Of a stretch of 64,000 nt of DNA, positions 3,615-64,000 are shown piece by piece. The stretch spans positions 64,001 through 128,000 of IMG/VR virus record IMGVR_UViG_3300017780_003104; one strand, 5' to 3'. A model generated the notes under the pieces. The model saw only the letters and a list, made by a program, of their open reading frames with translations, did not search any database and had not been told where the DNA came from. Position 1 is the stretch's first letter; every line of letters starts with the position of its first letter. This DNA comes from a virus (Duplodnaviria > Caudoviricetes). The translations under genes were made by a program, and so were the position numbers.

Positions 3615-3651
3615 ATATTCTTATTTATAATTAATGTTTATATAGTAAACC

Positions 3652-46758: not shown

Positions 46759-46782
46759 CATTAATTAAAACCGAATCATGAT
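46755..46782 (+). promoter_or_regulatory. Box promoter with -35
   Basis: TTGACA-TTAATTAAAACCGAAT-CATGAT-N6-ATG46789. Confidence 0.85.
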
Positions 46783-46788
46783 CGAGAC

Positions 46789-47298: not shown

Positions 47299-47321
47299 TA
47301 TATTAAATATTAAATATATTA

Positions 47322-48215
47322 ATGATTCCATTTAATTTATTCTTAGAACGAAAACAAAGAAATCCTCTTAGGAAAGAGGAATTGGCTGCGTCTGGAAGCG
47401 AAGATATTATGTCACCGAAATTCTGGGAGACATATAGAACATATTATAGAAAATATCCAGTAGAATCTATGCCAGATCCTTCTGACCAAGTTATTAAGAG
47501 AAAATATGATGATTTATTTAAATCATCAGAAGCTTTAGCCGAAAAGTATTTGGATTCTGAGATAATGAAAATTATCAATAAACTCAAAAGACCAACCACT
47601 AAGGAATATAAAAAGGTATATGAGTATCAAGGAGTTCAAGTATTTGTAGATGAGGTAAATGTCGAAGATACTAATTATGCTCCGGGGTCATATAATTATA
47701 GAATGGTTAAACATAATGTATTAGTCATGTTGACATATGTTAGGGATATATTGCCAAATAGAAAACCTAGAATAGTTATAACTAGTTTAGCAAAAAACCC
47801 ACACACAAAAGATTCATATGATCCAAGCAATCCATCTGCTGGTATGGCATATAGTAAATTAATTTATATTGATGAGAACCATATGGATGATTCTGTATAT
47901 TATGTACATGAATATGCTCATTGGGTTGCTGATCTAATACCCGCACAAACACAAGAAATGCTAATTAAAGCATTTAAGAAATTTATCGATTTATATTATA
48001 AGAAACAAAATCTTAAAAAGTCTCAAGATAGACAAAAAGAATTAACGGATTCTCAGAGAATTAAGATTGCAGCAAAGTTAGGATTCCCCGAATACGGACT
48101 GACCAACCATGATGAATTCTTTGCAGTATTAATTGAAAATTGGAAACAATTACCTAATAATAAAATGACATATAAATTTAAATCTTTGGTTAAGAATGTA
48201 ATAACAAGGCTATAA
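47322..48215 (+). CDS. Zincin-like metallopeptidase domain late protein
   Basis: HEYAH plus downstream DEFFAV; TAAATA-N5-ATG. Confidence 0.65.
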   Translation: MIPFNLFLERKQRNPLRKEELAASGSEDIMSPKFWETYRTYYRKYPVESMPDPSDQVIKRKYDDLFKSSEALAEKYLDSEIMKIINKLKRPTTKEYKKVYEYQGVQVFVDEVNVEDTNYAPGSYNYRMVKHNVLVMLTYVRDILPNRKPRIVITSLAKNPHTKDSYDPSNPSAGMAYSKLIYIDENHMDDSVYYVHEYAHWVADLIPAQTQEMLIKAFKKFIDLYYKKQNLKKSQDRQKELTDSQRIKIAAKLGFPEYGLTNHDEFFAVLIENWKQLPNNKMTYKFKSLVKNVITRL

Positions 48216-48219
48216 TAGA

Positions 48220-48411
48220 ATGAAAGTAATACACGAAGGAGTAATTGGAAGTCATAGTTTCCAAATGGTAGATAATACAACGATTGAGGTTTGGAGTGAT
48301 TTTGATAACGATCAACCAGAATCTTACATATTTGTAAATGAGGGGGCTGTAAATGATGAAAAGTCATTTCATGCGGAAATTTCATATTGGTACATGAAAA
48401 ATGTGGGGTAA
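48220..48411 (+). CDS. Hypothetical protein
   Basis: 63-aa ORF. Confidence 0.55.
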   Translation: MKVIHEGVIGSHSFQMVDNTTIEVWSDFDNDQPESYIFVNEGAVNDEKSFHAEISYWYMKNVG

Positions 48412-48616
48412 ATCATCAACTGAATCTTGGTATATTGAGGAGAATGAAAAACTCCGAGAATATTTAAAATGGACACTTGAAATGTTGAAACATTTTCCCA
48501 TGGAAGCTTCTCATGAAGGTGGTTGCTCTCCACCAATGACTCCTTGCGATGGGGGATGTTCAGCCGCATACCATTTCCATAAAACTATTAATGAAATTGA
48601 GGATATGTTGAATTAA
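48401..48616 (+). CDS. Hypothetical protein
   Basis: 71-aa ORF; C..P..PC.GGC cluster. Confidence 0.55.
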   Translation: MWGKSSTESWYIEENEKLREYLKWTLEMLKHFPMEASHEGGCSPPMTPCDGGCSAAYHFHKTINEIEDMLN

Positions 48617-48634
48617 TTAAAACCGAAATATCGT
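48613..48634 (+). promoter_or_regulatory. Box promoter
   Basis: TTAATTAAAACCGAAA-TATCGT-N6-ATG48641. Confidence 0.85.
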
Positions 48635-48640
48635 AGGCCC

Positions 48641-49555
48641 ATGAACTTGGACCTAAAACAAACACCATTTATGAAGGTGTCGGATATTGTAATACCTGAC
48701 ACCTTCTATAATAGGCTTAAAACGGGCATAGATGCGCTTGATAACATATTTGGTATGGGATTACTTCCCGGATCAACAATCACGCTCAAGGCACTACCGG
48801 GAGTCGGAAAGAGTGTATTCTCTTTAACTCTATCTGAGATGCTTACCGATTGTGGTTATAAAGTTGGATATACTTCGGGCGAGGAGGATATTCGTCAACT
48901 TGCGTATAATTGTAAGAGACTTGGGATTGAAAATACTGAAATTAGCAATATCACTGATATTGACGAAATTTTAAGTATAATGCCAGATAAGGATTTCATG
49001 GTTATTGATTCATTTCAAACATTAACGACAACTAGAAAATTAAATTCTAGAGAAAGGATCAAATATTTCAATGACAATCTTGTAAGAGTCGCTAAGGAAC
49101 ACGAATGCACCATATTATTCGTCGTTCAAGAATTGGCCGATGGAACGATCAGAGGTGGCACTTCCCTATTATATGCGGTGGATGTCAATATGCAGATATT
49201 AAAAAACAAGGAAGATAAAAATTCTAGAATTTTTGATGTTTACAAGAATAGATTTGGTGCTACAATGCAACACGAAGCGAGATTCGGACCTTCAGGTTAT
49301 GAATTTGTGGGTGAATATAGCGAAACAGAAGATATGGAAGACGAAAAAACTAAGAAAGCCCCAGTAAAGGAGAGTCGAAAATCCGATATCCTTAGTATGG
49401 ATGAGCCACCATTAATTACCGTTAAACGTGTAATGGATGAATTAGATATCAAAGAACAAACTGCAAAATTGCTCCTATCTGAACTTGAGAATGATATGAA
49501 ACTTATCAAGTATGGTAGAGGGATGGATGCTATTTGGAAATTTTATAAACAATGA
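48641..49555 (+). CDS. RadA/Sms-like RecA-family ATPase (no Zn finger or Lon domain)
   Basis: ALPGVGKS, YTSGEE, VIDSFQ, GGTSLLYAVDV, KNRFG. Confidence 0.82.
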   Translation: MNLDLKQTPFMKVSDIVIPDTFYNRLKTGIDALDNIFGMGLLPGSTITLKALPGVGKSVFSLTLSEMLTDCGYKVGYTSGEEDIRQLAYNCKRLGIENTEISNITDIDEILSIMPDKDFMVIDSFQTLTTTRKLNSRERIKYFNDNLVRVAKEHECTILFVVQELADGTIRGGTSLLYAVDVNMQILKNKEDKNSRIFDVYKNRFGATMQHEARFGPSGYEFVGEYSETEDMEDEKTKKAPVKESRKSDILSMDEPPLITVKRVMDELDIKEQTAKLLLSELENDMKLIKYGRGMDAIWKFYKQ

Positions 49556-49773
49556 GTGATATAACACTACCAATAGAAATGGCTCAATTATCAGTTGAGG
49601 AAATTGGCTCAATTTTCTTAGTTATGGCTATGCCTAAGTTATCCGAGGAAACTAGAATCAGATTATCCAAGGATGAGGTTTTTACCAAAACACTAAAATC
49701 AATGATAGAGGAAGAAATTATAATCATCAATGAAGATGGTGGTGGTGTAGATATAGATTTAACTTGGTTATGA
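49552..49773 (+). CDS. Hypothetical protein
   Basis: 73-aa coupled ORF. Confidence 0.6.
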   Translation: MSDITLPIEMAQLSVEEIGSIFLVMAMPKLSEETRIRLSKDEVFTKTLKSMIEEEIIIINEDGGGVDIDLTWL

Positions 49774-50309
49774 GCAATGAATGGCACGGCGGTAAGGGTA
49801 GTAAATCTAGAGTGTCTGATATGAAGTCATATTGGAATAGTTCACTTTGGGATAAAAGTAATACAGAAAAAAAAGATATGACAGAAATAAAAAGATTCTT
49901 ATTTTTAGATGATGTGAGAGATGTGCCACATGCATATCTATGGGATGATAATATATCGTTATTATCTAAATCTGGAATTCCTGCTTATAAATGGGATATC
50001 GTAAGATCTTACGATGAATTTGTAAGTTATATTGATTTAAAGGGAATACCAGATGTTGTTAGTTTTGATAATGATTTGTGGGATGTTTCACATGAACTTG
50101 CTACAAATCCTAGTAGTGAAGAACTCACAAAACAATTCTTGATGGAAGGTTGGGAAGACTTTTCAATTAAAACCGGAGCACACTGCGCGGAGTATTTGGT
50201 GGCTGCGTGTAAATTAAAAAATACTCCAATACCAACTTACTATGTCCATTCTGCGAATGGAACTGCAAGACCAATAATTAGAAAGATTTTAGAAAATGGG
50301 AAATTATAA
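49770..50309 (+). CDS. Cyclic-phosphate-processing receiver-like (cREC) domain protein
   Basis: LFLDDVR, VRSYDEF, VSFDNDL, KTG..CA.YL, VHSAN..R motifs. Confidence 0.8.
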   Translation: MSNEWHGGKGSKSRVSDMKSYWNSSLWDKSNTEKKDMTEIKRFLFLDDVRDVPHAYLWDDNISLLSKSGIPAYKWDIVRSYDEFVSYIDLKGIPDVVSFDNDLWDVSHELATNPSSEELTKQFLMEGWEDFSIKTGAHCAEYLVAACKLKNTPIPTYYVHSANGTARPIIRKILENGKL

Positions 50310-51024
50310 ATTTAGATCAAATGAAATAATATTACTTGGGGATACTCATAGTACGAGTGTTGTTCGGGATATAATTGCAACAAGAATCCCAGATGGGAGC
50401 GATATCATTCATTTGGGTGATGTTGGTCTTGGATTTGGAGACTTGTCATATTCTATCGATAACGCACTATCATGGCTTGGTATTTTCAATAAGCTATGTA
50501 GTAAACTTAACATTAATCTATACCTAATTCGCGGTAATCATGATAATACATCATTGAAGATTTGGGACTCTAAGTGGTCTAATGTCTTTTTGATCCATAA
50601 CAATGCCTATGCAACTTTCCCGAATGGAAAGAAGGTATTGTTTCTTGGTGGTGGTATAAGTATTGATAGAATTATAAGAACTCTCGATAATGATTATTGG
50701 GTCGATGAAGCTACACATCCCATTGAGACTGTTGAAAAATGTGATATCATATTTTCTCATGATTGTCCAGAAATCTTCAATCACTCATCTCATACTATTC
50801 CAACTCATTGGAAGACATATAATGACAAAGATGTGACATTATATGATGATTGCGTTAATCAACGTAAAGTGATAGGTGATATAGTGAATAAATCGGAAGC
50901 GTCTACTATATTTTATGGACATTTCCATAACCGGATCAGACAACAAATAGACGGTGTATACGCTCGTTGTGTGGATATAAACGAATTGGAATTTTTTGAT
51001 GCTAACAAAACATACACGATATGA
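50296..51024 (+). CDS. Calcineurin-like metallophosphoesterase
   Basis: GDTH, GDVG, GNHD, SHD, GHFH. Confidence 0.88.
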   Translation: MGNYKFRSNEIILLGDTHSTSVVRDIIATRIPDGSDIIHLGDVGLGFGDLSYSIDNALSWLGIFNKLCSKLNINLYLIRGNHDNTSLKIWDSKWSNVFLIHNNAYATFPNGKKVLFLGGGISIDRIIRTLDNDYWVDEATHPIETVEKCDIIFSHDCPEIFNHSSHTIPTHWKTYNDKDVTLYDDCVNQRKVIGDIVNKSEASTIFYGHFHNRIRQQIDGVYARCVDINELEFFDANKTYTI

Positions 51025-51593
51025 AAAAGAAATTATTTTTAGATTTTGATAATACATTGGCACACTCGCTATATGCTTCCAATAAAAAACATGCAGATGA
51101 TTTAATTTACGAGTATGGTGAGGTGTTTGAAGGTGAAAAATTCCATCTTAGGGGTGATGGGTGGATGACTACATTTAAAAGATCATGGACTGACGAACTT
51201 CTAAGATTCTCTAGAGAATTATACGGTGAGGATAATGTATATATTTTAACAACTGGAACAGTAGACTACATCGGATGGTGTAATGTTGTATTAAAATTGG
51301 AATTTGATCCTAATACGAATATTTTCGGTAGAGAGGATATAGTCAGACAAGATATTCATCCAAAATTCGTAGATACATTCAATGTATTAGTCGATGATCT
51401 GTTATACTATGATCATAGTATAGGTGATAGGTGTAAGGTAAATTTCCTAAACAAGATACCACCAGAACAATTCATTAACGTGGAGTATTTTAGTGTGCAT
51501 CAAACATCAACCCTAATAAGTGATAAGGATTATATCAAAGAACTCAAATGTAGAATTGTAGAAGCATTCGAATCAATTAAAACCGAAATATAA
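51021..51593 (+). CDS. HAD-superfamily phosphatase (NIF/FCP1-like)
   Basis: LFLDFDNTL motif I; LVDD motif IV. Confidence 0.75.
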   Translation: MKKKLFLDFDNTLAHSLYASNKKHADDLIYEYGEVFEGEKFHLRGDGWMTTFKRSWTDELLRFSRELYGEDNVYILTTGTVDYIGWCNVVLKLEFDPNTNIFGREDIVRQDIHPKFVDTFNVLVDDLLYYDHSIGDRCKVNFLNKIPPEQFINVEYFSVHQTSTLISDKDYIKELKCRIVEAFESIKTEI

Positions 51594-51594
51594 T
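51573..51594 (+). promoter_or_regulatory. Box promoter
   Basis: TCAATTAAAACCGAAA-TATAAT-N6-ATG51601. Confidence 0.85.
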
Positions 51595-51600
51595 TGCGAC

Positions 51601-51789
51601 ATGATCAAAGAACTATTACGAGAAATTAAGGAAACTTGGGGATATGAGACTGAGGAGTTGAATGATATCCGAGAAAAAATGGAAGAAGTAGGACATTCAT
51701 ATTTTTGGATGGGTTATGGTGAACGAACAGAGGAAATGCGAGAAGCTTCTGTATTTACAGGATACGGAAAACCGGAAGACTTTGAATAA
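51601..51789 (+). CDS. Hypothetical protein
   Basis: 62 aa; box promoter N6-ATG. Confidence 0.65.
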   Translation: MIKELLREIKETWGYETEELNDIREKMEEVGHSYFWMGYGERTEEMREASVFTGYGKPEDFE

Positions 51790-52019
51790 TGAGTGCTAAG
51801 AAAAAAACCAAAACTATGGTTAACGAGGATTTATATGAACAGGATGAAACCTTGATAGCTTTGAAAGAGAGATATTTCAAACTTCTACGACAAGAGAATT
51901 ATCCAAAGACTAAGCAACTAACAAACACATTAGATAAATTGGAAGTCGCTATAAATTCAAGAAAATTAGAAATTGTCACAAACAAGGGAAAGGAAACAAT
52001 ACCAGATGAAATTACCTGA
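51789..52019 (+). CDS. Hypothetical protein
   Basis: 76-aa coupled ORF. Confidence 0.55.
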   Translation: MSAKKKTKTMVNEDLYEQDETLIALKERYFKLLRQENYPKTKQLTNTLDKLEVAINSRKLEIVTNKGKETIPDEIT

Positions 52020-52401
52020 ACTCACCGGAAGAATATATAAACCATTTGATATATACGGTTGGGTCATGTGTATTCTTGGATTATCACTACTCTGTAAATT
52101 TGGAGGGGTTGGTTGGTTATTCGGAACCGATAAAAATTGGTGGTTATTCGCCTTTACCTTCTTTATTTTTATGGAATTCGCACTCCGAGTCGCATTGGGG
52201 AGAATTTATAAATTTGTTTATTATGATACTATTTTAAATGACATGTATGAATTGGATATTTCCGGCGAGCAATTCTTCGTATGTGCGGCTGGTTTAGACG
52301 AACTGAATTTATATATGGAAACAATACATCCAACACTAGAATATAAGATTGTGAATGATACTTTAGTTGAATCATTCGTAAAAACAGAACAACACCAATG
52401 A
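52006..52401 (+). CDS. Hypothetical membrane protein
   Basis: Two hydrophobic segments; likely start MKLPEL. Confidence 0.6.
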   Translation: MKLPELTGRIYKPFDIYGWVMCILGLSLLCKFGGVGWLFGTDKNWWLFAFTFFIFMEFALRVALGRIYKFVYYDTILNDMYELDISGEQFFVCAAGLDELNLYMETIHPTLEYKIVNDTLVESFVKTEQHQ

Positions 52402-52943
52402 AAAATTTTAAAGGAGATTTATTAGAATCTAATTGTGATATGCTTGTACATTGTGCCAATTTATATCATACGTTTGGATCGGGAATCGCTTATTTCATTA
52501 AGAGGAAATTCCCAGAGGCTTATCAAGCTGACCTAGAAACTGAAAACGGCTGTGAAAGTAGATTAGGGACATATTCCAAAGCGAGTATATCCAATAACAG
52601 AGTTCTCTATAATTTGTATGCTATGGTTGGTATTGGTAACTCAGGACATCCAATAGATAGAAATCTATCATATGACCATTTTTATAATGGTTTATATAAT
52701 GTTTGTGTCGATGCTATGCATAGTTATAAAGGTATCACACCACTTGTAGTGGGAGTCCCAAAATATATAGGATGTGCTAGGGCTGGTGGTAATTGGACTA
52801 TTGTTGAAACTATTCTAAATGAAATCGAAAGTGAATTTGAAGATAAAATTGAGATTCATGTATATGAACTAGAGGAACCGGAGGTGAACCCTAAAAGCAC
52901 CTTGCCACAAAATTTTAATCCAAATCTTGGTATTTTTTACTAA
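52398..52943 (+). CDS. Macro domain protein (ADP-ribose binding/hydrolase)
   Basis: KGDLL, VHCANL.HTFGSGIA..I..KFP, PKYIGCARAGG.W. Confidence 0.88.
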   Translation: MKNFKGDLLESNCDMLVHCANLYHTFGSGIAYFIKRKFPEAYQADLETENGCESRLGTYSKASISNNRVLYNLYAMVGIGNSGHPIDRNLSYDHFYNGLYNVCVDAMHSYKGITPLVVGVPKYIGCARAGGNWTIVETILNEIESEFEDKIEIHVYELEEPEVNPKSTLPQNFNPNLGIFY

Positions 52944-52951
52944 GCCGAATT

Positions 52952-53221
52952 ATGAAAATTAACATAAGTCCGACTAGTGGTGATATAACTATATTTGCTG
53001 AATCTAGTGATTCCTTTAATAGTTTTGGTGGGGAGTATTGGGATGATATATCACATTATGCTGAATATGGCTTAGATTTAGGTGATATATCAATCAATAG
53101 CATATCACCTAAGCAATTTAAACAGTTGGCGATTTCTATGATCAATCATCTCATGATTAATGGTCATGATTTTTCAATTGGTGATGATGTAAATGGATCA
53201 TATATTAGATCCATTAATTAA
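52952..53221 (+). CDS. Hypothetical protein
   Basis: 89-aa ORF. Confidence 0.55.
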   Translation: MKINISPTSGDITIFAESSDSFNSFGGEYWDDISHYAEYGLDLGDISINSISPKQFKQLAISMINHLMINGHDFSIGDDVNGSYIRSIN

Positions 53222-53235
53222 AACCGAAGTATACT
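53214..53235 (+). promoter_or_regulatory. Box promoter
   Basis: TTAATTAAAACCGAAG-TATACT-N6-ATG53242. Confidence 0.85.
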
Positions 53236-53241
53236 ATACCC

Positions 53242-54345
53242 ATGAGATTACCCACACTTTATTCCCGAACAAATACCGGAGCAGTCCAAACATGGACAGT
53301 TGAAATCCAAGGCGACTCATATAGAACCATTCATGGTCAATTAGATGGTAAATTACAAATCACTGAGTGGACTGTTTGTATTGTCACTAATGAAGGTCGT
53401 GCTAATGAGAGAAATCCCGAGCAACAGAGTATATTCGAATCTACTGCGATGTTCACTAAAAAGAAAGATACTGGATACTTTGAAAGACTTGAAGATATCG
53501 ATACATCTTTTTATGTTGAACCCATGCTTGCTAAAAAGTGGGAAGATCGTAAAGACAAGGTAAAATTTCCTGTATATTGTCAACCAAAACTTGATGGTAT
53601 GCGAGCAGTTATCACTAGAAATGGTGCTAAGTCTCGTAATGGTAAACCTTGGGTGACTATTCCACACATTTTAGAAGCATTAGAACCTGTCTTTGACAAG
53701 TATCCAGACTTGGTATTGGATGGTGAACTATATAACCATGATTTGAAGTTTGACTTTAATAAGATTTCGTCTTTGATTAAGAAGACGAAACCAACGCCAC
53801 AGGATTTGGAAGAAAGTGCTAAACTTGTGCAATTCTGGTGGTATGATACAGCTAGTGATAAACACACATTTACTCAACGTGCTAGTTGGATTAATACTTT
53901 ACATGATCGTTATGAATTGGATGAGTGTATTCAAATGGTATGCACCCATAAAGTGAGAGATAATAGTGAACTTGATGCATGGTATGATACATATCTCGCA
54001 CATGGCTATGAAGGTCAAATGATTCGTCTTGATACACCTTATGAATTTAAGCGTTCTGCCAATCTTCTCAAGAGAAAAGAGTTTCAAGATGAAGAGTATA
54101 AGATTCTCGATATCGTGGAAGGTGTTGGTAATCGTGCGGGATTAGCTGGTGCTATGGTTTTTGAAAATGAACTAGGACACCAATTCAATTCCAATATTAA
54201 GGGGGATAGAAAATATCTAAAAGAATTGTTGGTATATGCAGATTCATATATTGGGAAATTGGCAACAGTTGTATTCTTTAATAAAACTCCCGATAGGCAA
54301 ATTCCACGTTTCCCATTCGTTCATAGTATCCGCGATTTTGAATAA
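53242..54345 (+). CDS. ATP-dependent DNA ligase
   Basis: Motif I QPKLDGMR, LDGELY, EGQMIR, RS..LLKRK, PRFP. Confidence 0.95.
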   Translation: MRLPTLYSRTNTGAVQTWTVEIQGDSYRTIHGQLDGKLQITEWTVCIVTNEGRANERNPEQQSIFESTAMFTKKKDTGYFERLEDIDTSFYVEPMLAKKWEDRKDKVKFPVYCQPKLDGMRAVITRNGAKSRNGKPWVTIPHILEALEPVFDKYPDLVLDGELYNHDLKFDFNKISSLIKKTKPTPQDLEESAKLVQFWWYDTASDKHTFTQRASWINTLHDRYELDECIQMVCTHKVRDNSELDAWYDTYLAHGYEGQMIRLDTPYEFKRSANLLKRKEFQDEEYKILDIVEGVGNRAGLAGAMVFENELGHQFNSNIKGDRKYLKELLVYADSYIGKLATVVFFNKTPDRQIPRFPFVHSIRDFE

Positions 54346-54354
54346 ATGTGGAAA

Positions 54355-54391
54355 TCTTGGTATCTGAGACTAAATAGTTTCATGGCCAAGA
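54355..54391 (+). promoter_or_regulatory. Hairpin with late promoter in the loop, sequestering the endonuclease start codon
   Basis: TCTTGG..TGAGACT-AAAT-AGTTTCA-TGG-CCAAGA; ATG 54382 lies in the 3' arm. Confidence 0.6.
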
Positions 54392-55104
54392 AAAAATATG
54401 ATCATATATTAATAGAAGACGTAATCAAAGAATATGTAGAAGACTTATACTCCACCATTCAACTAGCAGAGAAATATAATGTTAGTGAATGGTGGATAGC
54501 TGATAGGTTGAAAAAAGCTGGAGTAAAAATAAGAAACCGTGGAGGTGGAGTTCATATGGTGGATATATCTGGAGAACGATTCGGATATTATACAGTAATA
54601 AACAAATTAGAAAAGGAGAATAATAATAGAGGTGCAATATGGCAGGTAGTATGTGACTGTGGTAATGTTCGTGAGGTTCTTAGTTATCACCTAAGATCTG
54701 GAGAATCGAAATCATGTGGAGATTGTTTAGAACATCATAATTGGAAAGGTGTTGGTGAGATGAGTGGAAATGATTTCGCTAATATTCGAAGAGGCGCAGA
54801 GAAACGAAATATGATATTTGATATAAGTAAGGAATATGTATGGGACTTATATTTAAAACAAGATAAAAAATGCGCTTTAACTGGATTAGATATAAGATTT
54901 GTGAGAGGATATGAAAACCATAGGAAAGCAGCAAAAACAGCATCTCTAGATAGAATAAATTCAAAATTGGGATATGTCAAGGGTAATGTTCAATGGATTC
55001 ATAAAGTGGTGAATATTATGAAATGGCACTTGGATGAAGATTACTTTATAGAAATGTGTAGAAAAGTAGTAGAATATAACGAAAGTGAAATCTCTATTAA
55101 TTAA
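54382..55104 (+). mobile_element. Free-standing homing endonuclease (His-Me finger/HNH-like)
   Basis: HTH N-terminus, VCDCG..SCGDC, CALTG, SLDRINSKLGYVKGNVQWIH..N.MK; own TAAATA-N5-ATG. Confidence 0.82.
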
Positions 55105-55118
55105 AACCGAAATACAAT
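55097..55118 (+). promoter_or_regulatory. Box promoter
   Basis: TTAATTAAAACCGAAA-TACAAT-N6-ATG55125. Confidence 0.85.
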
Positions 55119-55124
55119 ATCGAT

Positions 55125-55751
55125 ATGGTAGAATACCCATCAATACAGAATAGTTCAAAAGCCCCCCGTAAAGAATGTATAGCATTCGATAAACTTGATG
55201 GGTCTAATTTTAGAGCTAAATGGACTAAGAAACAAGGATTCTCTACGTTTGGAACTAGAACACAGTTGATAGATGAAACTACACCTTTTTGGTGTGATAT
55301 GGTTTATCGATTTAAGAATAATCTTAGCGAAACTTTAGAGAAGCTTATTCTTAAGGAATATCAAAATGAAAGAGAAGTGATAGTATTCGGTGAATATTTC
55401 GGGGAAAATAGTTTCGCTGGGAGGCACGAAGAAGAAGACCATAAAATTGTAGTATTCGATGTTTTAGTAGGACATAAGAATCGAAAATTTATTAAACCTA
55501 GAGATTTTGTAAAATTACTTTCAGATAAGATTGAGATACCTAGAATAGTTTATGAGGGTAATCTAAATGATGATCTTATTAAGAGAGTCAGATCAGATGA
55601 ATTTAATACCTTTGAGGGAGTTATCTGTAAAGGAACACAATCGGTAGGCAATGCTATGGGTGGTATATGGATGGCTAAGATTAAAACACAAAAATACCTA
55701 GATAGTCTTAAAACTAGATTTGGAGAAGATTGGGTGAAATACGCAGAATAA
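55125..55751 (+). CDS. RNA ligase (Rnl2-like nucleotidyltransferase, minimal)
   Basis: KLDGSN, FGEYFG, FDV, EGVI, AKIK motifs. Confidence 0.8.
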   Translation: MVEYPSIQNSSKAPRKECIAFDKLDGSNFRAKWTKKQGFSTFGTRTQLIDETTPFWCDMVYRFKNNLSETLEKLILKEYQNEREVIVFGEYFGENSFAGRHEEEDHKIVVFDVLVGHKNRKFIKPRDFVKLLSDKIEIPRIVYEGNLNDDLIKRVRSDEFNTFEGVICKGTQSVGNAMGGIWMAKIKTQKYLDSLKTRFGEDWVKYAE

Positions 55752-55756
55752 AAAAT

Positions 55757-55972
55757 ATGAGAAAATTAGAAACGACTAAGATGGAGTGGATTTCTGTAGA
55801 AGATGGATTACCGCCAAATTATGAAAGAGGTGGTGGATTTAAATATTATCTAGTTAGACTTGATGAATATTATCCAAATTTTGATAGAGGAATTTTGATA
55901 GATGGTGAATGGTGTCCCGATTTCACTATGATCTTTAAAACTAAGGTTACTCATTGGTGTGATGTTCCATGA
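55757..55972 (+). CDS. DUF551-like small protein
   Basis: MEWISVEDGLP...VTHW. Confidence 0.65.
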   Translation: MRKLETTKMEWISVEDGLPPNYERGGGFKYYLVRLDEYYPNFDRGILIDGEWCPDFTMIFKTKVTHWCDVP

Positions 55973-56151
55973 TGGAAACCGATCCATACAAACTCAAAAG
56001 AATCTACGCAAAACGCTTGATGAATGCCAAGGGTTATGTTATGTTTTGGGAGATTCATGTCAAAAAGCATCCAGATACATTTGCACTTAATATGCTGGAA
56101 GTGGCTAAAAAAATATTACTAAAAACAGAAAAGGAAATAGATAAACTATGA
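55969..56151 (+). CDS. Hypothetical protein
   Basis: 60-aa coupled ORF. Confidence 0.55.
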   Translation: MMETDPYKLKRIYAKRLMNAKGYVMFWEIHVKKHPDTFALNMLEVAKKILLKTEKEIDKL

Positions 56152-56387
56152 TTATAAATTCAATATCAGGGGATGACAATATCAATAAAGTTTTAAACGC
56201 ATCTTTATATGCCACCTTAAAGACATTAACTGCCGAAAAATATATAACTCCCGAACAGTCGAAGGAATTTGGGGAAAATTACGTTGCGGTCTTTGTAAAG
56301 AAGGACGGAGGATTTGTTGAATGGATGAAAGCTAAATTTGGAAAAACTTCTGATATGGTTGTAGTGATGAAAACGTTTGTTGATTAA
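56148..56387 (+). CDS. Hypothetical protein
   Basis: 79-aa coupled ORF. Confidence 0.55.
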   Translation: MIINSISGDDNINKVLNASLYATLKTLTAEKYITPEQSKEFGENYVAVFVKKDGGFVEWMKAKFGKTSDMVVVMKTFVD

Positions 56388-56401
56388 AACCGAAATATAA
56401 T
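56380..56401 (+). promoter_or_regulatory. Box promoter
   Basis: TTGATTAAAACCGAAA-TATAAT-N6-ATG56408. Confidence 0.85.
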
Positions 56402-56407
56402 CGCACC

Positions 56408-56626
56408 ATGAAAAGAAGTTTTTGGTTCCATTATAATAAGCCTGAATCCCGTAAAGTGGGAAAGCCTCAGATTACCGTTCACTATATGGGTGCTTGTCAC
56501 ATAGTTGACAATTTAAAATGTAATGTTCCAATAGCTGGAAAGCTTAGAAAGACACAACCCTTTTGGGTTATAGCTGGGAAAACATCTTCCATCGAATTTG
56601 AAGATGGATTAGCAACTATTAATTAA
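56408..56626 (+). CDS. Hypothetical protein
   Basis: 72 aa; flanked by two box promoters. Confidence 0.7.
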   Translation: MKRSFWFHYNKPESRKVGKPQITVHYMGACHIVDNLKCNVPIAGKLRKTQPFWVIAGKTSSIEFEDGLATIN

Positions 56627-56640
56627 AACCGAAATATAAT
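56619..56640 (+). promoter_or_regulatory. Box promoter
   Basis: TTAATTAAAACCGAAA-TATAAT-N6-ATG56647. Confidence 0.85.
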
Positions 56641-56646
56641 CACACT

Positions 56647-58029
56647 ATGAAATTGAAAATCACAGAAGGAGCAGATCCAAATTATTTGGCAACTGTTGTA
56701 AAAGTTCCCACTATTAAGGAACATCCAAATGCTGATAAATTGGAAATTGTCGATGTTTTTGGTAATTCTATTATTATTGGTAAGGGTTCTTACACTGAAG
56801 GTGAACTCGTTGTTTACTTTCCAATCGAGAGTGCCATTTCTCTTAAGTTTTTGTCTTGGGCAAACCTAAGAGATAGTGCCGAAATGAATGCAGATGGTAA
56901 GACTAAGGGTTTCTTTGGAAAACATGGCCGAGTCAAGGCTATTAGTCTTAGAAGCATTCCATCACAAGGCTTTCTATTTAAAGTATCTGAACTAGTAAAA
57001 TATTATGAAATTGATGAAAACACGTTTAATCTTGGGGATACTTTTGATACTGTCGGTGATGATATCTTGGTTAAGAAATATATTAAAGGAACCGACAGAG
57101 GACAAGGTGAACAAAACGTAAAGAAGACCCGTGTTCCGAAATGGTTAGATAAGACCATTGGAGTTATGCCAAGACCTATTCGTAGAAATGCTTATATTTT
57201 TATTAATTCTTGGTATAATCGAAATAGCGAAGGTATTAAATCTCAAATCGTAGATGGAGAATTTAGATTCCACTACAAGACAGAACAACTTGGCCGAAAT
57301 ATTTTCATATTGAAGCCTGAAGATTCTATAACTATATCTAGTAAGATGCATGGAACTTCTGCAATCTTATCTAATATCGTTTGTAAGAAACCATTCAATC
57401 CAATTAGAAGTATTGGAAATAAATTTGGTGCGAAGATTCCATCGACTGAATATAAATTTGTGTATAGTTCAAGGTCTGTATTGAAAAATCGTCGTGATGG
57501 AAAATTTACAGACGATGTTTGGGGTATTATTGCGTCTGAATTAAAGGATGAAATTCCAGAAGGTTATACTGTATATGGCGAAATTGTGGGGTATACTCCC
57601 GGTGGTGCTATGGTTCAGAAGAATTACGATTATGGTATAACTAGGGGTAAGTGTGAATTTTTTGTATATCGAATCACATATAATCTATCCGATGGAAAGG
57701 TTAAGGAATTGGAATGGTATGAAATCGAAGAATTTTGTTATGAGCATGGTATGAGGAATGTTAAGGTTTATTACAATGGTTTGGCAAGTGATCTATTTGA
57801 TATTCCACTTGATAATGATTGGCATGAAACCTTTTTATCTAAACTCAAAGATAATCACCTTGATAATGTTTGTGAACAATGCACCACAGGTTCTATTAAT
57901 GAGGGTATTGTTCTTAGAATTGAAAGTAGTGAAAAGAAAACTGCATTAAAATTTAAAAGTCCTAAGTTCTTGATTCAAGAGTCGGCAGCAAGAGATAATA
58001 ACGAGGAAGACATGGAGGACGATAGTTAA
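56647..58029 (+). CDS. RNA ligase, DRB0094-like family
   Basis: N-terminal IKEHPNADKLE..G..VVYFP..S, KMHGTS motif I, YGEIVG, EGIVLR. Confidence 0.85.
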   Translation: MKLKITEGADPNYLATVVKVPTIKEHPNADKLEIVDVFGNSIIIGKGSYTEGELVVYFPIESAISLKFLSWANLRDSAEMNADGKTKGFFGKHGRVKAISLRSIPSQGFLFKVSELVKYYEIDENTFNLGDTFDTVGDDILVKKYIKGTDRGQGEQNVKKTRVPKWLDKTIGVMPRPIRRNAYIFINSWYNRNSEGIKSQIVDGEFRFHYKTEQLGRNIFILKPEDSITISSKMHGTSAILSNIVCKKPFNPIRSIGNKFGAKIPSTEYKFVYSSRSVLKNRRDGKFTDDVWGIIASELKDEIPEGYTVYGEIVGYTPGGAMVQKNYDYGITRGKCEFFVYRITYNLSDGKVKELEWYEIEEFCYEHGMRNVKVYYNGLASDLFDIPLDNDWHETFLSKLKDNHLDNVCEQCTTGSINEGIVLRIESSEKKTALKFKSPKFLIQESAARDNNEEDMEDDS

Positions 58030-58033
58030 AATT

Positions 58034-58147
58034 ATGATAGAACAAATTATTAGAGGATTATTTGGATGTATAGGTGCAACAATTACATTGTATTGCTTAT
58101 GTACAGTATATACAAAACATATAAAGAAAGAGGATGATGAAATCTGA
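58034..58147 (+). CDS. Small membrane protein (37 aa, not in ORF track)
   Basis: MIEQIIRGLFGCIGATITLYCLCTVYTKHIKKEDDEI; fills the gap between two genes. Confidence 0.5.
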   Translation: MIEQIIRGLFGCIGATITLYCLCTVYTKHIKKEDDEI

Positions 58148-58724
58148 AGATTACGGATATATAGTGAAGAATAACTTGTGCCTTTTTCAAAAAGGTCCAC
58201 TATCTCAATGGTGGGGCGGTTTTAAAGGACAGGATTCATCTTTTAAGGTTGATATAAATGAATTATATAGTTATTATACTGGTGACAATAGTGGATTACT
58301 AAGTAATATCTCAAGGGAATATAAACACTTATATTTTAATTGTTGTGAGCAATGGATGATGGCATGTAAGGCTATTTTATTTGATGATGTTGATACCTTT
58401 AAATTGATAATGGATGAAAAATCACCATCTAAACAGAAAAATTTAGGCAGAGTCGTATCAAACTATGATCAAGAAGTTTGGGAGATTTATAAATACAGTA
58501 TTGTTCTCCGAGGTAATGAACATAAATTTGAACAAAATCCAGAATTGAAAGAATTCTTAATGAGTTTCAATTATTTTACTATATTTGCCGAAGCTGCGCC
58601 ATGGGATAAAGTTTGGGGAATTGGTCTAGGTCCAGAAGACCCCAAATCATTAGATATTAATACATGGCAAGGTGAGAATCTTTTAGGTAAAGTATTAATG
58701 GATGTGAGACGTAGTATTGATTAA
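58134..58724 (+). CDS. NADAR family protein (YbiA-like)
   Basis: LSQW, EQWMM..KA.LF.D, KNLGR.V, GNEHKF.QN, EAAPWD.VWGIG, G.NLLG..LM. Confidence 0.92.
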   Translation: MMKSEDYGYIVKNNLCLFQKGPLSQWWGGFKGQDSSFKVDINELYSYYTGDNSGLLSNISREYKHLYFNCCEQWMMACKAILFDDVDTFKLIMDEKSPSKQKNLGRVVSNYDQEVWEIYKYSIVLRGNEHKFEQNPELKEFLMSFNYFTIFAEAAPWDKVWGIGLGPEDPKSLDINTWQGENLLGKVLMDVRRSID

Positions 58725-58738
58725 AACCGAATTATAAT
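58717..58738 (+). promoter_or_regulatory. Box promoter
   Basis: TTGATTAAAACCGAAT-TATAAT-N6-ATG58745. Confidence 0.85.
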
Positions 58739-58744
58739 AACGAT

Positions 58745-59434
58745 ATGAGTGAAGTATATCAAATAATTACAGACGAAGCAGCCCTTCGAGAATATATCGA
58801 ATGGTTGCCTGATTGTAAAGAAAACGAGCAGTTTTATTTGACACTGTTTTCCCGAAAGAAGTATTGTCCAGAGATGCCTTGGATCAAAAGTGACAAAGGA
58901 CAACTTGCTAGAAAGACTAGTTCTAAAGATTATCTTTATGATAAGATCGCTCAAATGGAGTGTAAGGTTGGTGCTTATAGAATGGAGGGCAATCCCGTTC
59001 CACAAAAAGCACTGGCTTGTTATGTATCAGTGAATCCGAGAGACTTGTGGAGAGCTACGCTTCGTAGTATCGGTAAGTTGGCTACGGTGCTGGAATGTGG
59101 TGGTAGGAACTCCAATCCCCATCAAGAAGTAATGTCTGAAATTCAGAAGAACACGGGTACACGTAAGTATATCGGATTTGATATCGATGATAAAGACGAA
59201 ACACTAATTCGGAATTGTATCGATACCGCTAGTGGTATGTGTGATGTGGTAGAAACCCGTGGTGGTTATCATCTATTTGTCCATAAGGATAAAGTTGATA
59301 AGATCAAGGGTAAGAACACTTGGTATCAGGAGTTGTCTAAACATTCTGATGTTCAAGGTGATATCATGTCACCTCCTTGTGGAACATACCAAGGTGGGCA
59401 TACGGTCAGGTTTAAATATAGGTGTAAAGACTAA
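58745..59434 (+). CDS. Putative AEP/PrimPol-like nucleotidyltransferase
   Basis: hhhDxD (IGFDIDD) and T.GG.H (ETRGGYH) motifs. Confidence 0.5.
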   Translation: MSEVYQIITDEAALREYIEWLPDCKENEQFYLTLFSRKKYCPEMPWIKSDKGQLARKTSSKDYLYDKIAQMECKVGAYRMEGNPVPQKALACYVSVNPRDLWRATLRSIGKLATVLECGGRNSNPHQEVMSEIQKNTGTRKYIGFDIDDKDETLIRNCIDTASGMCDVVETRGGYHLFVHKDKVDKIKGKNTWYQELSKHSDVQGDIMSPPCGTYQGGHTVRFKYRCKD

Positions 59435-59438
59435 AGTT

Positions 59439-59837
59439 ATGACCATTAAAGAACATTTAGAAAAAATCAAGAGTTTGTCCGAAGAAATAGACACTCTCAA
59501 AGATAAAATAGATTCCCATGTAGTAGATGTGGCCTATAGATTCTCTAGAGTGAATCCAAACGAGCATAATAGACCATCATCCAAGGAAAATTTTGGAGAT
59601 TGGTATATTGGGGAAAATACGGTTATATGTAATTGGATTAATTTTTGGTCTTATGGTGGGTATGATGAAGGGACTGTTAGTGTTCCGATTGATTATATCT
59701 ATGATAATGAGAGATTCGAAGAGTTTATACACCAGTGCGAAATCACTAAAAAAACTCAAAAATTACTATCAGAAAGACATGTGTTACAACAGAAAAGGTT
59801 GTTTTTTGATCAATTGAAAAGGGAGTTGGGTCAATAA
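59439..59837 (+). CDS. Hypothetical protein (start reassigned to MTIKE)
   Basis: ATG 4 nt after upstream stop. Confidence 0.6.
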   Translation: MTIKEHLEKIKSLSEEIDTLKDKIDSHVVDVAYRFSRVNPNEHNRPSSKENFGDWYIGENTVICNWINFWSYGGYDEGTVSVPIDYIYDNERFEEFIHQCEITKKTQKLLSERHVLQQKRLFFDQLKRELGQ

Positions 59838-59843
59838 TCTAGC

Positions 59844-59871
59844 TTGACATTAATTAAAACCAAATTACAAT
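59844..59871 (+). promoter_or_regulatory. Box promoter with -35
   Basis: TTGACA-TTAATTAAAACCAAAT-TACAAT-N13-ATG59885. Confidence 0.85.
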
Positions 59872-59884
59872 ACGAGTCATCCTT

Positions 59885-60226
59885 ATGAAAATATATGATA
59901 TTGAAGCTTATATGGCCCCACCTATCGATAAGTGGTCAAAACTTATAGGGTTTCAATATATGAGAAAATCATATGCTGAAGGTGCATGGGCTATGCTTAA
60001 ATCGCATTATAACCAAAGGACTGAACATCGTCTATTATGTGATGGTGTGGCTGTTGAACAGGTTGGTAAACAAACAGTAAAGGTTAATTCTGTGGTTGTT
60101 GATATCAAAGTTTGTGAAAATTGCTTTCAAAAAGTTAATATAGATGATAATACTGGACACGGTATGTATTGCGACTATGTATATGGGCGAAGAGGGTGGC
60201 GACAATTAGGGGCATACGACGGTTAA
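59885..60226 (+). CDS. Hypothetical protein
   Basis: 113 aa; TTGACA-box-TACAAT promoter upstream. Confidence 0.65.
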   Translation: MKIYDIEAYMAPPIDKWSKLIGFQYMRKSYAEGAWAMLKSHYNQRTEHRLLCDGVAVEQVGKQTVKVNSVVVDIKVCENCFQKVNIDDNTGHGMYCDYVYGRRGWRQLGAYDG

Positions 60227-60231
60227 TTTAT

Positions 60232-60672
60232 ATGAACACAAAACAGGTAATAGTAATTCGAAAAGACCTCAATATGAGGAAGGGTAAGATGTGTGCTCAA
60301 GCTAGTCACGCATCTATGTCATTTTTAACAAAAGATGGATACCCTAAACATGACGTTGAATATGGTTCTGGGCATGAAAATGATTTTCATGCATTCTACT
60401 TCGCCAATTATTCTCTTCAAATAGAAAAACATTTTTATGAAATTGATCATTGGATTAAAAACTCCTTCCGTAAAATCTGCGTCTATGTAAATTCTGAAGA
60501 GGAATTAGATGCCCTTCACCAAAAGGCTCTTGACAAAGGACTCATATCACATATGATTATTGATAATGGAGTGACTGAATTCAATGGAGTTGCAACAAAG
60601 ACTTGTCTAGCAATCGGTCCCCATGAAGACTCCAAGTTTATTGGTTTGACTGACCATCTTCCTCTTCTTTAG
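60232..60672 (+). CDS. pth2: Peptidyl-tRNA hydrolase, Pth2 family
   Basis: KQVIVIRKDL.M.KGK..AQ.SHA, RKI, I.DNG.TE, T.LAIGP, TDHLPLL. Confidence 0.92.
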   Translation: MNTKQVIVIRKDLNMRKGKMCAQASHASMSFLTKDGYPKHDVEYGSGHENDFHAFYFANYSLQIEKHFYEIDHWIKNSFRKICVYVNSEEELDALHQKALDKGLISHMIIDNGVTEFNGVATKTCLAIGPHEDSKFIGLTDHLPLL

Positions 60673-61342
60673 GTTTCCAACCTTTATGAGATTTATGTCT
60701 ATCGGGTTTGGTGAAGAGTCTATGTATTATTCGGGCATTTAAATGATATTTGCGTGCAAATTCACACATATTTTCTCCGACGATAATATCTCCAAAATCC
60801 TTATGGGTCAAAACTCTTGTTTTTCTATTAAATTCAGATTCTGGGTATGATATATTGGCCGAGCACCACCCCTTCATCTGTTTCTTTTTCCCTTTAAGTA
60901 TCTTAGACATGGAAGATCGATCAACTCCGATATAATTAGAAGCCTCTGTCATCGAAGCAAAACTTATAATCTCACCAGTCTGAATATTTTTAATAGCACA
61001 GGGAATTTTTAATAATTCTGAACATCTATATTCATTTCCGAGGGTCATGTTGAAATTGGGTTTAATATTTGCGTTATATCTTTTAATATAAACTTCTTCT
61101 TTCAAAGCAATTTCATTATCTGTCAAATATGATAATTCCTCTATTATAGTGTAAATAAAATCAGACTTCCCATATTTATTGTAATGATTTTGTAGATATG
61201 GATTTTTATGTTTGTTGGTTTTAAGATAATATCTATGATTGCTCCATCTAATTTTTATATTTGTGGAATATCCGATATAAATTCTTCCCGTCGATACACT
61301 TTTAATATGATAAATTCCTCGAATTTGGGGTCCAATAGCCAT
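60638..61342 (-). mobile_element. Free-standing GIY-YIG homing endonuclease
   Basis: GIYHI..GRIYIGYS, E..YI, FN motif, NUMOD-like C-terminus; TAAATA-N5-ATG; 3' end overlaps pth2 antisense. Confidence 0.88.
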
Positions 61343-61356
61343 ACATTTATTTAGTC

Positions 61357-61384
61357 TTGACACTCATTAAAACCATGATAAAAT
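61357..61384 (+). promoter_or_regulatory. Degenerate box promoter with -35 at the edge of the GIY-YIG insertion
   Basis: TTGACA-CTCATTAAAACCATGA-TAAAAT. Confidence 0.7.
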
Positions 61385-61428
61385 ATGAAAAATTTGAAGA
61401 AGTCACAGATCACTTACCACTATTATGA
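61375..61428 (+). pseudogene. Displaced duplicate pth2 3' end (KFEEVTDHLPLL*)
   Basis: 9/12 aa identical to the pth2 C-terminus KFIGLTDHLPLL; its TGA overlaps the ATG of the next gene. Confidence 0.8.
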
Positions 61429-61877
61429 GTATGTTCGACAAATATAAATTTCTACATGGATTACCATTAGAAGGTCAAAAAATAATCTTTAAAAGATGTC
61501 CTATGAGTTGGTTTACCAATGTAGTAGAGGATTCTAAAAGATTGGTAATTGATCAGGAATACACGGTCAGGAAAACCCAATTAAACTCTTCATCTACGTA
61601 TGTTTGGTTAGAGGAGTTTCCAAATATTTTTGATCCTAATGATCTTAATGATGGAAGGGATCAACCATTTTTTTGTATGAGTAGTTTTGAGTGGATTAAG
61701 CCCGAACCTAAATTAGAGGATTTAATAGGATTTAATGTTAGAGACTTAGCAACCATTAATAATATTTTTGGATGGGGTGTTGAACTAGATGGTAAAGTTT
61801 GGTTATGTGGTGATCCCATGTTAATAATTGAATATGGAATTCATAACACTGTTGTAACAGCTAAATTTAAAGAATAA
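61425..61877 (+). CDS. Hypothetical protein
   Basis: 150-aa ORF; ATGA overlap with the pth2 relic. Confidence 0.65.
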   Translation: MSMFDKYKFLHGLPLEGQKIIFKRCPMSWFTNVVEDSKRLVIDQEYTVRKTQLNSSSTYVWLEEFPNIFDPNDLNDGRDQPFFCMSSFEWIKPEPKLEDLIGFNVRDLATINNIFGWGVELDGKVWLCGDPMLIIEYGIHNTVVTAKFKE

Positions 61878-61881
61878 TAAT

Positions 61882-62076
61882 ATGAATATGATTAGTGAAA
61901 TGTGTGAAAATAGTAAACCAACACCGGAACAAATTTCGGAATATAAAAATGAGAGTGATCATGATAAGAGGATTGAATTAGCTTATGAATATCAAATCTC
62001 TAAAGCGGATTTGTGTTCGGAAGATTACATTGAAATCTTAGATGATATGTATAAAGCTTTAAATGAAACATTATAA
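61882..62076 (+). CDS. Hypothetical protein
   Basis: 64-aa ORF. Confidence 0.55.
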   Translation: MNMISEMCENSKPTPEQISEYKNESDHDKRIELAYEYQISKADLCSEDYIEILDDMYKALNETL

Positions 62077-62763
62077 ATCTAAATCCCTTTTTATTTCCAT
62101 GATTAATGATTGTATGTTGTCGATATTGATCCTATTACCTTTGGATATATTCTCTTTAGCCCACATGGGTTGTAGGTTTTTATAGTAAAAACATATTTTT
62201 TGATGATCATCTTTGGTGAAATCAAAAAAACTACAAGGGATAATGTGATCTATATGCCAACCATCATGACCATAATTATCCCATGACATTCCCATAGTAA
62301 ATTTAGACTCTAAATTTATTTTCAATTCTTCAAATGAGATACCAGTCATATTAAGAGTGGATTCCTTTTTACTTCTTCCCTTTAATGCAGATCTCATCCT
62401 ATCTCTCATATTTTTAGCGATTTTGTTGGTAGGATTTTTTAGCCAGTTATTTCTTTGTATTCTTGCTTTAATCTTATAATCTTCGGATGAAGATCTTTTC
62501 CTTTTTTCGATTAAAAATTTTTCTCTATATTCAGGATCAGTTGACATTCTTAGTTTAAAATATGCATTAGTTTTTTTAATTTCTTCTACGGTCTTTTTCT
62601 TTATTTTTTCTGGATGATTTGATCTATATTTCTTAATACTAAGTTGATTACAGGATTTACAATAACTCCTGATACCACTTTTTCCTAATTTTTGTTTGCT
62701 AAAATTATCCAACGTTTTCTCTATCTCACATTGACTACATCGCTTGACATTTACTTCACACAT
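62071..62763 (-). mobile_element. Free-standing HNH homing endonuclease
   Basis: CSQC..CKSC Zn finger, WHIDHIIP..F..C..Y.NLQPMW..EN..KGN; TAAATA-N5-ATG. Confidence 0.85.
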
Positions 62764-62813
62764 GCTATTATTTAATATATTCGGTTCGAAAACCGAAGGA
62801 AATACTCAAAATT

Positions 62814-63479
62814 ATGAACTTATTTATTATTCGTCACGGTGAGTCTGTTGGAAACAAGTCACCATCGGTTTATTTTGAAAAACTTGATTGTCAAATTGAG
62901 TTGACTGAAAAAGGAGAAGAAGATGCGGGAAGCGCATACAATTCTATATTAAGTATTTGTGATCAACTTTGGTTAGATAAATATCAAGACAATCCAATTT
63001 TACGAGAACCGATACATTTTAATATGTATTATAGTCCATATGTTAGATCACAGCAGACTGCTAATATCATTTGTAATAAGATTAGCACAACTCCGGGATA
63101 TACGGTAAATCAATATATAGAAAGTCCATTATGCAGAGAACGCGAATGGGGCGGTCTTAGAGATATTGTGAATATGGGTAAGAAAACGGAAGACCATTTT
63201 AATTTCTTCTATAGACCTACCAATGGAGAATCATTTGCTGATTGCTTTCAAAGAGTTGCGATATTTCACCAATGGCTATCGAGCAATACCAAATATGAAA
63301 ATAATATTATAGTAGCTCATGGGGAATTTAATAAATTATATTTGATGTATTTGCTTGGGTGGGATGTTGAAGAGTTTAATAAATGGAAGACCCCCAGAAA
63401 TGGCGAAGTGTATTTGATACGAGATGGGGTTCTGAGTAGTATAACACCGTTGACCCATAAATATATAAATGGAAAATAA
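62814..63479 (+). CDS. Histidine phosphatase (phosphoglycerate mutase superfamily)
   Basis: RHGES, SPY.R..QTA, EREWG, GES, VAHG. Confidence 0.9.
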   Translation: MNLFIIRHGESVGNKSPSVYFEKLDCQIELTEKGEEDAGSAYNSILSICDQLWLDKYQDNPILREPIHFNMYYSPYVRSQQTANIICNKISTTPGYTVNQYIESPLCREREWGGLRDIVNMGKKTEDHFNFFYRPTNGESFADCFQRVAIFHQWLSSNTKYENNIIVAHGEFNKLYLMYLLGWDVEEFNKWKTPRNGEVYLIRDGVLSSITPLTHKYINGK

Positions 63480-64000
63480 AAGATATTATGCTGGGATCGG
63501 GTCTAGATCGGCCCCAACAAATATTCAAAAGGTTATGACCGAATTAGCCAGTGAACTATGTGATATGGGATACTGGCTAAGATCTGGAAATGCCGATGGA
63601 AGTGATCAAGCTTTTGCTAAAGGTGTTTACGATAAAAAAGCTCAGATATGGCTACCGTGGAAAGATTTCAATTTTACATTTCAATTAGCTCATCCTAAAC
63701 ATACATATAAAGTTATTAGAGATGATGATTCGGACGCATTTAAATCGATAGAGAAGTTTCATCCCAAACCATCGAGATTAGGTGGTTTTGGTATTAAGCT
63801 TATGGCTAGAAATTATAGACAAATGATTGGAGAAAACGAACCCGATTCACAATTTGTTATATGTTGGACTACTGATGGAAATATGGTCGGTGGAACGGGA
63901 CAAGCATGGAGAATTGCTTTACATTCCAAAATTCCAGTGTATAATCTTCACGATATGTCGAAGGATCAAGTGATCAAAGAGATTCAAAAATTAAACTTAT
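63469..64000 (+). CDS. SLOG/DprA-like protein (partial, runs off window)
   Basis: Translated by hand: MENKRYYAGIGSRSAP...LRSGNADGSDQAFAKG...WT..G..GGTGQA. Confidence 0.75.
   Translation, partial: MENKRYYAGIGSRSAPTNIQKVMTELASELCDMGYWLRSGNADGSDQAFAKGVYDKKAQIWLPWKDFNFTFQLAHPKHTYKVIRDDDSDAFKSIEKFHPKPSRLGGFGIKLMARNYRQMIGENEPDSQFVICWTTDGNMVGGTGQAWRIALHSKIPVYNLHDMSKDQVIKEIQKLNL

Follow-up and report, generated by a model that had tools for sequence, protein, structure and literature searches.

In a tailed phage from fresh water, a free-standing GIY-YIG homing endonuclease very probably resides inside the coding sequence of pth2, as part of a cassette of about 760 bp (60622-61381). Judged from the sequence, the cassette opens with a foreign tail that completes the pth2 reading frame (the last 16 codons and the stop), continues with a GIY-YIG/NUMOD nuclease gene on the opposite strand and closes with a back-to-back control region that includes an outward promoter. 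The resident pth2 tail appears to have been displaced downstream, where an ATGA overlap still joins it to the next gene. The insertion point directly follows the conserved AIGP codons and is 16 codons away from the pth2 stop. Coordinates refer to the window, by which we mean the whole analyzed stretch of 64,000 nucleotides, which corresponds to bases 64001-128000 of an IMG/VR virus record; the record measures 211,724 bp and has direct terminal repeats. The virus is a myovirus by gene content, as it encodes a tail sheath, a large terminase and an RNA ligase.

The pth2 gene (60232-60672, plus strand) matches the Pfam family PTH2 with an E-value of 1e-28 up to the last position of the profile. 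Codons 1-130 up to the AIGP motif (60232-60621) represent the resident part according to Pfam and the comparison with a related locus (L113, see below). The remaining codons, HEDSKFIGLTDHLPLL with a TAG stop (60622-60672), form the cassette-borne replacement end, whose last part reads KFIGLTDHLPLL-TAG at 60634-60672. Beyond the nuclease gene lies the displaced native end, YEKFEEVTDHLPLL followed by its stop (61384-61428, plus strand); it contains a second in-frame copy, KFEEVTDHLPLL-TGA at 61390-61428, whose TGA overlaps the start codon (ATG at 61425) of a gene for a 150-aa protein of unknown function (61425-61877, plus strand). The first approximately 15 nt of this remnant may be carried by the cassette, and the remnant is now probably the 5' leader of the 61425 gene. 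The sequence thus holds all the features that the original prediction had described for two pth2 ends flanking an antisense GIY-YIG gene. Among seven tabulated loci, the proximal stop was TAG or TAA in all seven, and the remnant ended with a TGA overlapping the ATG of the next gene in six.

The nearest empty site was found in a relative rather than in the same phage. IMG/VR locus L001, on a 206.6-kb contig with a pth2 protein 78% identical to that of the window, has no nuclease; its pth2 ends with KFDGLTDHLPLL-TGA and shares an ATGA overlap with a homolog of the 61425 gene, just as had been foreseen for endonuclease-free relatives. A histidine-phosphatase gene follows this homolog directly, and its counterpart in the window starts at 62814. 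At the DNA level, the distal copy and the start region following it closely match the pth2/next-gene junctions of L001 and of a further locus, L006, from which the proximal copy with its CTT-rich sequence and TAG stop stands apart. A hand count over the 36 nt between F and the stop gave about 9 differences from L001 for the distal copy and about 13 for the proximal copy, on a piece of about 45 nt that is too short for a tree. The distal copy also has its TGA/ATGA junction in common with L001 and L006, in agreement with its earlier assignment as the likely original end of the gene.

A survey of 5.8 billion proteins yielded nine members of the nuclease family, all of which are convergent, i.e. 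tail-to-tail, with the 3' end of pth2. We counted pth2 ends by a motif scan of the loci and confirmed the absence of the family from endonuclease-free loci with tblastn. Two pth2 ends were present in 8/8 endonuclease-bearing contexts for which DNA was available and a single end in 20/20 endonuclease-free loci (Fisher p = 3e-7); endonuclease-free relatives with both ends, which would have spoken against the original prediction, numbered 0 of 20. The occurrence of a second end in every occupied locus and in none of the endonuclease-free ones argues that the similarity of the two ends is not due to chance. The nuclease therefore shows a presence/absence polymorphism at one fixed site, the 3' end of pth2, with 9/9 members located there and 20 related loci without it, and the genes downstream of the insert differ among the eight occupied contexts. 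In locus L033 (2760-2960), and likewise in L034 and L122, the outward promoter and the pth2 remnant are separated by a 66-aa open reading frame. Cassettes of the L033 type may carry a cargo gene.

The extent of the cassette was deduced from pairs of occupied loci. Between the window and L113, codons 1-130 of pth2 are only 66% identical in nucleotide sequence with synonymous sites saturated (pS 0.74), whereas codons 131-146 are 98% identical. Identity amounts to 93.7% between codon 131 (CAT, 60622) and approximately 61381, beyond which the sequences are unrelated, and the break at 60621/60622 is sharp. The L113 nuclease has the same 234-aa form as that of the window and is 92% identical to it. 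With a tail at 98% and a cassette at 93.7% against a gene body at 66%, the proximal tail shares the history of the nuclease and not that of the gene, which bears out the proposal that the element supplied the replacement 3' end. A converse pair is formed by loci L117 and L123. Here, the 3' half of the pth2 body is nearly identical, as are the promoter and the first approximately 40 nt of the remnant, whereas tail and nuclease have diverged to about 55-60% protein identity. Both pairs have their left break immediately behind the AIGP codons, and the right junctions lie at differing points within the remnant. Judging from the L117/L123 pair, different nuclease lineages apparently take each other's place at this one site.

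The nuclease gene (60638-61342, minus strand) encodes a protein of 234 aa with one NUMOD1-type module. Its match to the Pfam GIY-YIG family PF01541 reaches 25.1 bits at a cut-off of 22.6, and a NUMOD1/I-HmuI NUMOD-like module covers residues 116-159. In a phmmer search the protein matched the I-TevI domain (1MK0/1LN0) with an E-value of 6e-8 and with R27, H31 and E75 aligned. Residues G9, Y11, Y22, I23, G24, R32, H36, E82 and N98 are invariant in the nine family members. Full-length relatives comprise 286-291 aa, contain a second NUMOD1/HTH module at about 242-265 and share 6-9 nt with pth2. The nucleases of the window and L113 lack the approximately 65 C-terminal residues after HKGW, including this second module, and instead read on through antisense pth2 for 11 final codons and a stop, resulting in an overlap of 35 nt. 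The observation that the proximal copy doubles as the antisense strand of the last 11 nuclease codons is thereby confirmed as such, but the overlap seems to be incidental and a by-product of the C-terminal truncation of the nuclease. The sole change between window and L113 within the 35 nt is silent for pth2 and alters the nuclease, which indicates that pth2 sets the constraint there. Designed dual coding of the overlap was rejected because of this change and the overlaps of merely 6-9 nt in the full-length relatives. The dN/dS of the nuclease is 0.13 at a dS of 0.26 between the two truncated copies (window against P0001). From this low ratio and the invariant catalytic residues that align to I-TevI we predict that the enzyme is intact. 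Still, lacking the last DNA-binding module, the window nuclease might be inactive or of altered specificity.

The truncation by about 65 residues would also fit a fossil of one old event, in which the nuclease is immobile, i.e. decaying or domesticated, and the region has since been shuffled by ordinary recombination. The region is mosaic in general in these phages and the genes after pth2 vary, as such shuffling would have it. We nevertheless regard this explanation as unlikely. Even the truncated form is under a dN/dS of 0.13, and the cassette is much more recent than the flank on its left, as the nuclease dS of 0.26 compares with saturation in the pth2 body. Moreover, the sharp breakpoints at codon 130/131 are common to two independent comparisons, and the cassette occurs in eight contexts with different remnants.

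The relationship between the two ends bears on the question of how they came together. Proximal and distal copies agree in nine of 12 residues, but every one of the seven TDHLPLL codons is different, as is the stop, and there are 18 nucleotide differences over the 36 nt from F to the stop. These codon differences had been interpreted as a synonymous recoding of the replacement end. The differences themselves are real; however, copies from the same locus are 64% identical, which is the same as for random pairs of alleles from different phages. The apparent recoding need not be more than ordinary divergence between pth2 alleles, and a designed recoding is not required for it. Because same-locus copies resemble any two alleles, we infer that independent alleles were brought together, rather than that one was duplicated locally. 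A duplication of the pth2 end in place, with subsequent divergence of the copies and a nuclease that landed between them later, is accordingly very unlikely, even if the copies are direct repeats in the same frame that encode nearly the same peptide. Apart from the allele-like divergence of 64%, it would have to account for the 98% identity of the proximal copy between phages with synonymously saturated pth2 bodies, and for the finding that none of the endonuclease-free loci has two copies.

Many phage GIY-YIG nucleases are intron-encoded, and the distal copy retains an open frame as well as the ATGA junction, so that it could in principle be the real last exon behind an intron or another spliced element. 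However, the nuclease is encoded antisense to pth2, the proximal tail continues the pth2 frame to a stop and is conserved in all occupied loci, and the single change in the overlap is silent for pth2 and not for the nuclease. A permissive search (E up to 1) of 59500-63000 gave no match to a group I or group II intron or to any other Rfam family, after which the intron reading was dropped as highly improbable. Together with the conserved in-frame tail, this result is in line with the original view that the element invaded the gene without splicing.

Chance similarity or a chimeric assembly, suggested by the shortness of the repeat (12-15 codons) and the origin of the sequence from a metagenome assembly, can practically be dismissed given an independent contig that holds the whole structure and the eight contexts from separate samples (Fisher test above). 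The sequence is present in several freshwater metagenome studies, and the second contig, which comes from another study, covers 59000-61886 with 2 differences; the structure is therefore not an assembly artefact. Recurrence of the occupied allele across several freshwater studies points to its persistence. When contigs from four freshwater runs were compared with 59000-63600, three contained the occupied allele and one had a gap over the cassette region with coverage too thin to count; at this thin coverage none of the contigs skips the cassette. GenBank phages gave no match to 59800-62100 in a DNA search and none to the product of the 61425-61877 gene in a protein search, and their pth2 proteins are only distant matches (≤45% identity). 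An exact search of IMG/VR for 24 bases of the proximal tail found no match either.

The preferred reading, a cassette resident in pth2, includes a control region between the nuclease and the remnant. The outward promoter (61357-61384, plus strand) was recognized by its consensus match and consists of TTGACA at 61357-61362, the box ATTAAAACC at 61366-61374 and the -10 element TAAAAT at 61379-61384. As TTGACA-N16-TAAAAT it agrees with the consensus at 11 of 12 positions and has a TG before the -10 element; only 10 sites of equal quality exist in the 64 kb. A promoter at the 5' end of the nuclease gene is conserved in all cassettes, which supports the outward promoter that had been proposed at 61357. 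The -35 and -10 elements are kept with a spacing of 16 nt in the cassettes read and the spacer varies; L119 has TTAACA as -35 and an atypical -10 element. The spacers of the window, L113 and L119 contain ATTAAAA(C/T)C. The genome contains approximately 65 copies of the box in the arrangement ATTAAAACC-gaan-TATAAT. Almost all of them are plus-strand copies at 110-178 kb, and each precedes a TATAAT-like hexamer by 4 nt and lies shortly before the start of a gene. They seem to represent a phage-specific, possibly middle, promoter class, and the cassette promoter apparently belongs to the phage's own class. The box copies (window 46764-61366; genome 110-178 kb) end 5-7 nt before the ATG and a few of them also have TTGACA at -35. 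With such a distance to the ATG, mRNAs from box promoters would be leaderless or nearly so. For the cassette promoter, a plus-strand start at about 61390 would be predicted from its position, making the remnant the leader of the 61425 gene. The downstream gene could also be served by transcripts from upstream, so that the cassette promoter may not be needed for it. An origin of the -10 element from the codons at the beginning of the remnant (CAT GAT AAA) was also considered and rejected, since about 65 other genes share the spacing and sequence class of the box.

The nuclease leader (61343-61353, minus strand) contains a late-type TAAATA motif 5 nt upstream of the ATG, and this TAAATA-N5-ATG arrangement is conserved in the cassettes. 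Over the whole genome, TAAATA is located 3-10 nt upstream of 45 of 244 open reading frames, with 1.5 expected. It is probably a T4-like late promoter. Both features of the control region have been reported for T4. The set includes several large, likely structural open reading frames (e.g. window 33741, 31317 and 18846) and both antisense nuclease genes.

Further insertions and rearrangements were observed around pth2. The window contains at 61882-62763 a 64-aa open reading frame and an antisense HNH/endonuclease VII-like open reading frame (62071-62763; phrog_1035, E 2e-21), which separate the 61425 and histidine-phosphatase genes that adjoin in L001, L028 and L114. The 62071-62763 nuclease is also arranged tail-to-tail, with a 6-nt overlap and an outward TTGACA-N16-TATTAT at 62744, and the segment looks like a second nuclease insertion. 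No clear duplicate gene end was found around this nuclease or around the other GIY-YIG gene of the genome. In L121 (1050-1244), pth2 is reduced to its C-terminal 64 codons, which lack a proper start; they stand behind two genes with PEP-CTERM-like anchor ends and are directly followed by the 61425 homolog, so that this locus seems to represent a different kind of rearrangement. Proteins of 165-174 aa encoded after pth2 in L002 (4641-5138) and L003 (4405-4929) end with ELPLL before the stop, compared with LPLL in pth2, and overlap the next gene by ATGA. The resemblance may be coincidental, or these proteins may stem from another insertion that became joined to a displaced pth2 end. Opposite-strand LAGLIDADG-like open reading frames lie a few genes upstream of pth2 in L114 (6436-7233) and L117 (4451-5431). 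The more distant phage of L021 has a distantly related GIY-YIG domain (35% identity over 71 aa) immediately before pth2 (3531-3740); this domain belongs to another family and lies on the other side of pth2 than the cassette nuclease. As far as these predicted genes allow us to judge, the neighborhood of pth2 is rich in nuclease insertions.

We propose that the nuclease would cut endonuclease-free pth2 alleles near codon 130/131 in a mixed infection. The break would then be repaired from the occupied allele, and tail, nuclease and promoter would be copied along. The pth2 body would serve as the left homology, and the retained remnant together with whatever follows it as the right homology. Variable right junctions within the remnant fit crossovers that resolve in this short homology. 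Since both arms would lie in one conserved gene, the cassette could move between phages that differ in the order of genes after pth2. It is plausible that the foreign tail would confer immunity to the cassette's own nuclease. The late-type TAAATA motif would drive the nuclease, and the genes downstream would be transcribed anew from the early-type promoter of the phage box class, their leader being the remnant. The wider proposal joins several of these elements: the remnant as a portable right arm, homing into any phage that carries pth2, a promoter module that makes the insertion nearly free of cost, and a general lifestyle that has so far not been described. We consider this combination quite possible and put it forward tentatively.

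Gene-end replacement as such is known from fungal mitochondria, where mORFs form hybrid genes, as in atp6 of Allomyces macrogynus, atp6, atp9, cox2 and nad3 of Glomus sp., atp9 of Rhizopus and cox2 of Mortierella (PMC3630166). The similarities to our cassette are considerable: an endonuclease open reading frame enters the 3' part of a conserved gene, a foreign C-terminal piece completes the gene and the native piece stays downstream, with the two copies differing mostly at synonymous sites (PMC3630166). In contrast to the fungal cases, the host is a tailed phage and the nuclease is antisense and tail-to-tail instead of in phase with the gene. The phage cassette also has a back-to-back promoter module, its remnant remains joined to the beginning of the gene that follows, and a single nuclease family occupies a single site in eight genomic contexts. 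Among phages, a parallel is the "intronless homing" of the free-standing Seg (GIY-YIG) and Mob (HNH) nucleases of T4-like phages (PMC2988022). Seg and Mob share with the cassette an I-TevI-type GIY-YIG domain and NUMOD/HTH modules, presence or absence between related phages, flanking DNA that moves together with the nuclease, and nuclease promoters of the middle or late class (PMC2988022). The T4 examples are intergenic or split genes (Aeh1 nrdA, T4 39/60), and a duplication of gene ends is not mentioned in the review (PMC2988022). Unlike them, the cassette interrupts a coding sequence and makes it whole again by means of the gene end that it carries.

Replacement ends are also supplied by integrating elements. 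The element e14 and phage 21 in icd of E. coli, as well as many prophages in tRNA genes, integrate at the 3' end of the gene and provide it with a new one. As in the cassette, the incoming DNA brings a slightly different 3' end and the old end is found beyond the insert. However, these integrants depend on a site-specific recombinase and a short identical core, whereas a homing nuclease relies on homologous repair; the GIY-YIG nuclease is the only gene in the approximately 760 bp of the insert, which contains no recombinase. With the group I intron-encoded enzymes I-TevI and I-BmoI the cassette nuclease shares the catalytic domain and the placement of both homology arms in one conserved gene. 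In contrast to these, it operates without ribozyme or splicing, and a duplicate end restores the gene at the DNA level. Our literature searches found no description of gene-end replacement by a homing endonuclease in a phage; one may exist elsewhere.

Homing endonucleases are thought to persist within coding sequences only as parts of self-splicing introns or inteins, and otherwise to settle between genes. The cassette in pth2 would represent a third route in phages, in which the element carries a spare gene end and the gene is never broken. One nuclease family at one target gene in eight genomic contexts constitutes a clean data set, the sharp common breakpoints point to the likely cut site, and the promoter module would explain how the insertion is tolerated. 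Short "orphan" gene ends beside nucleases should be regarded as footprints of such events during annotation. If the wider proposal is true, the nuclease resembles an intron in that one conserved gene provides both of its homology arms, yet no splicing of RNA is involved, and its back-to-back promoters, a late one for itself and an early one for the downstream genes of the host phage, would render the insertion nearly cost-free. The system bears on how free-standing nucleases invade genes, how they move across different gene orders and how hybrid genes originate in phage populations.
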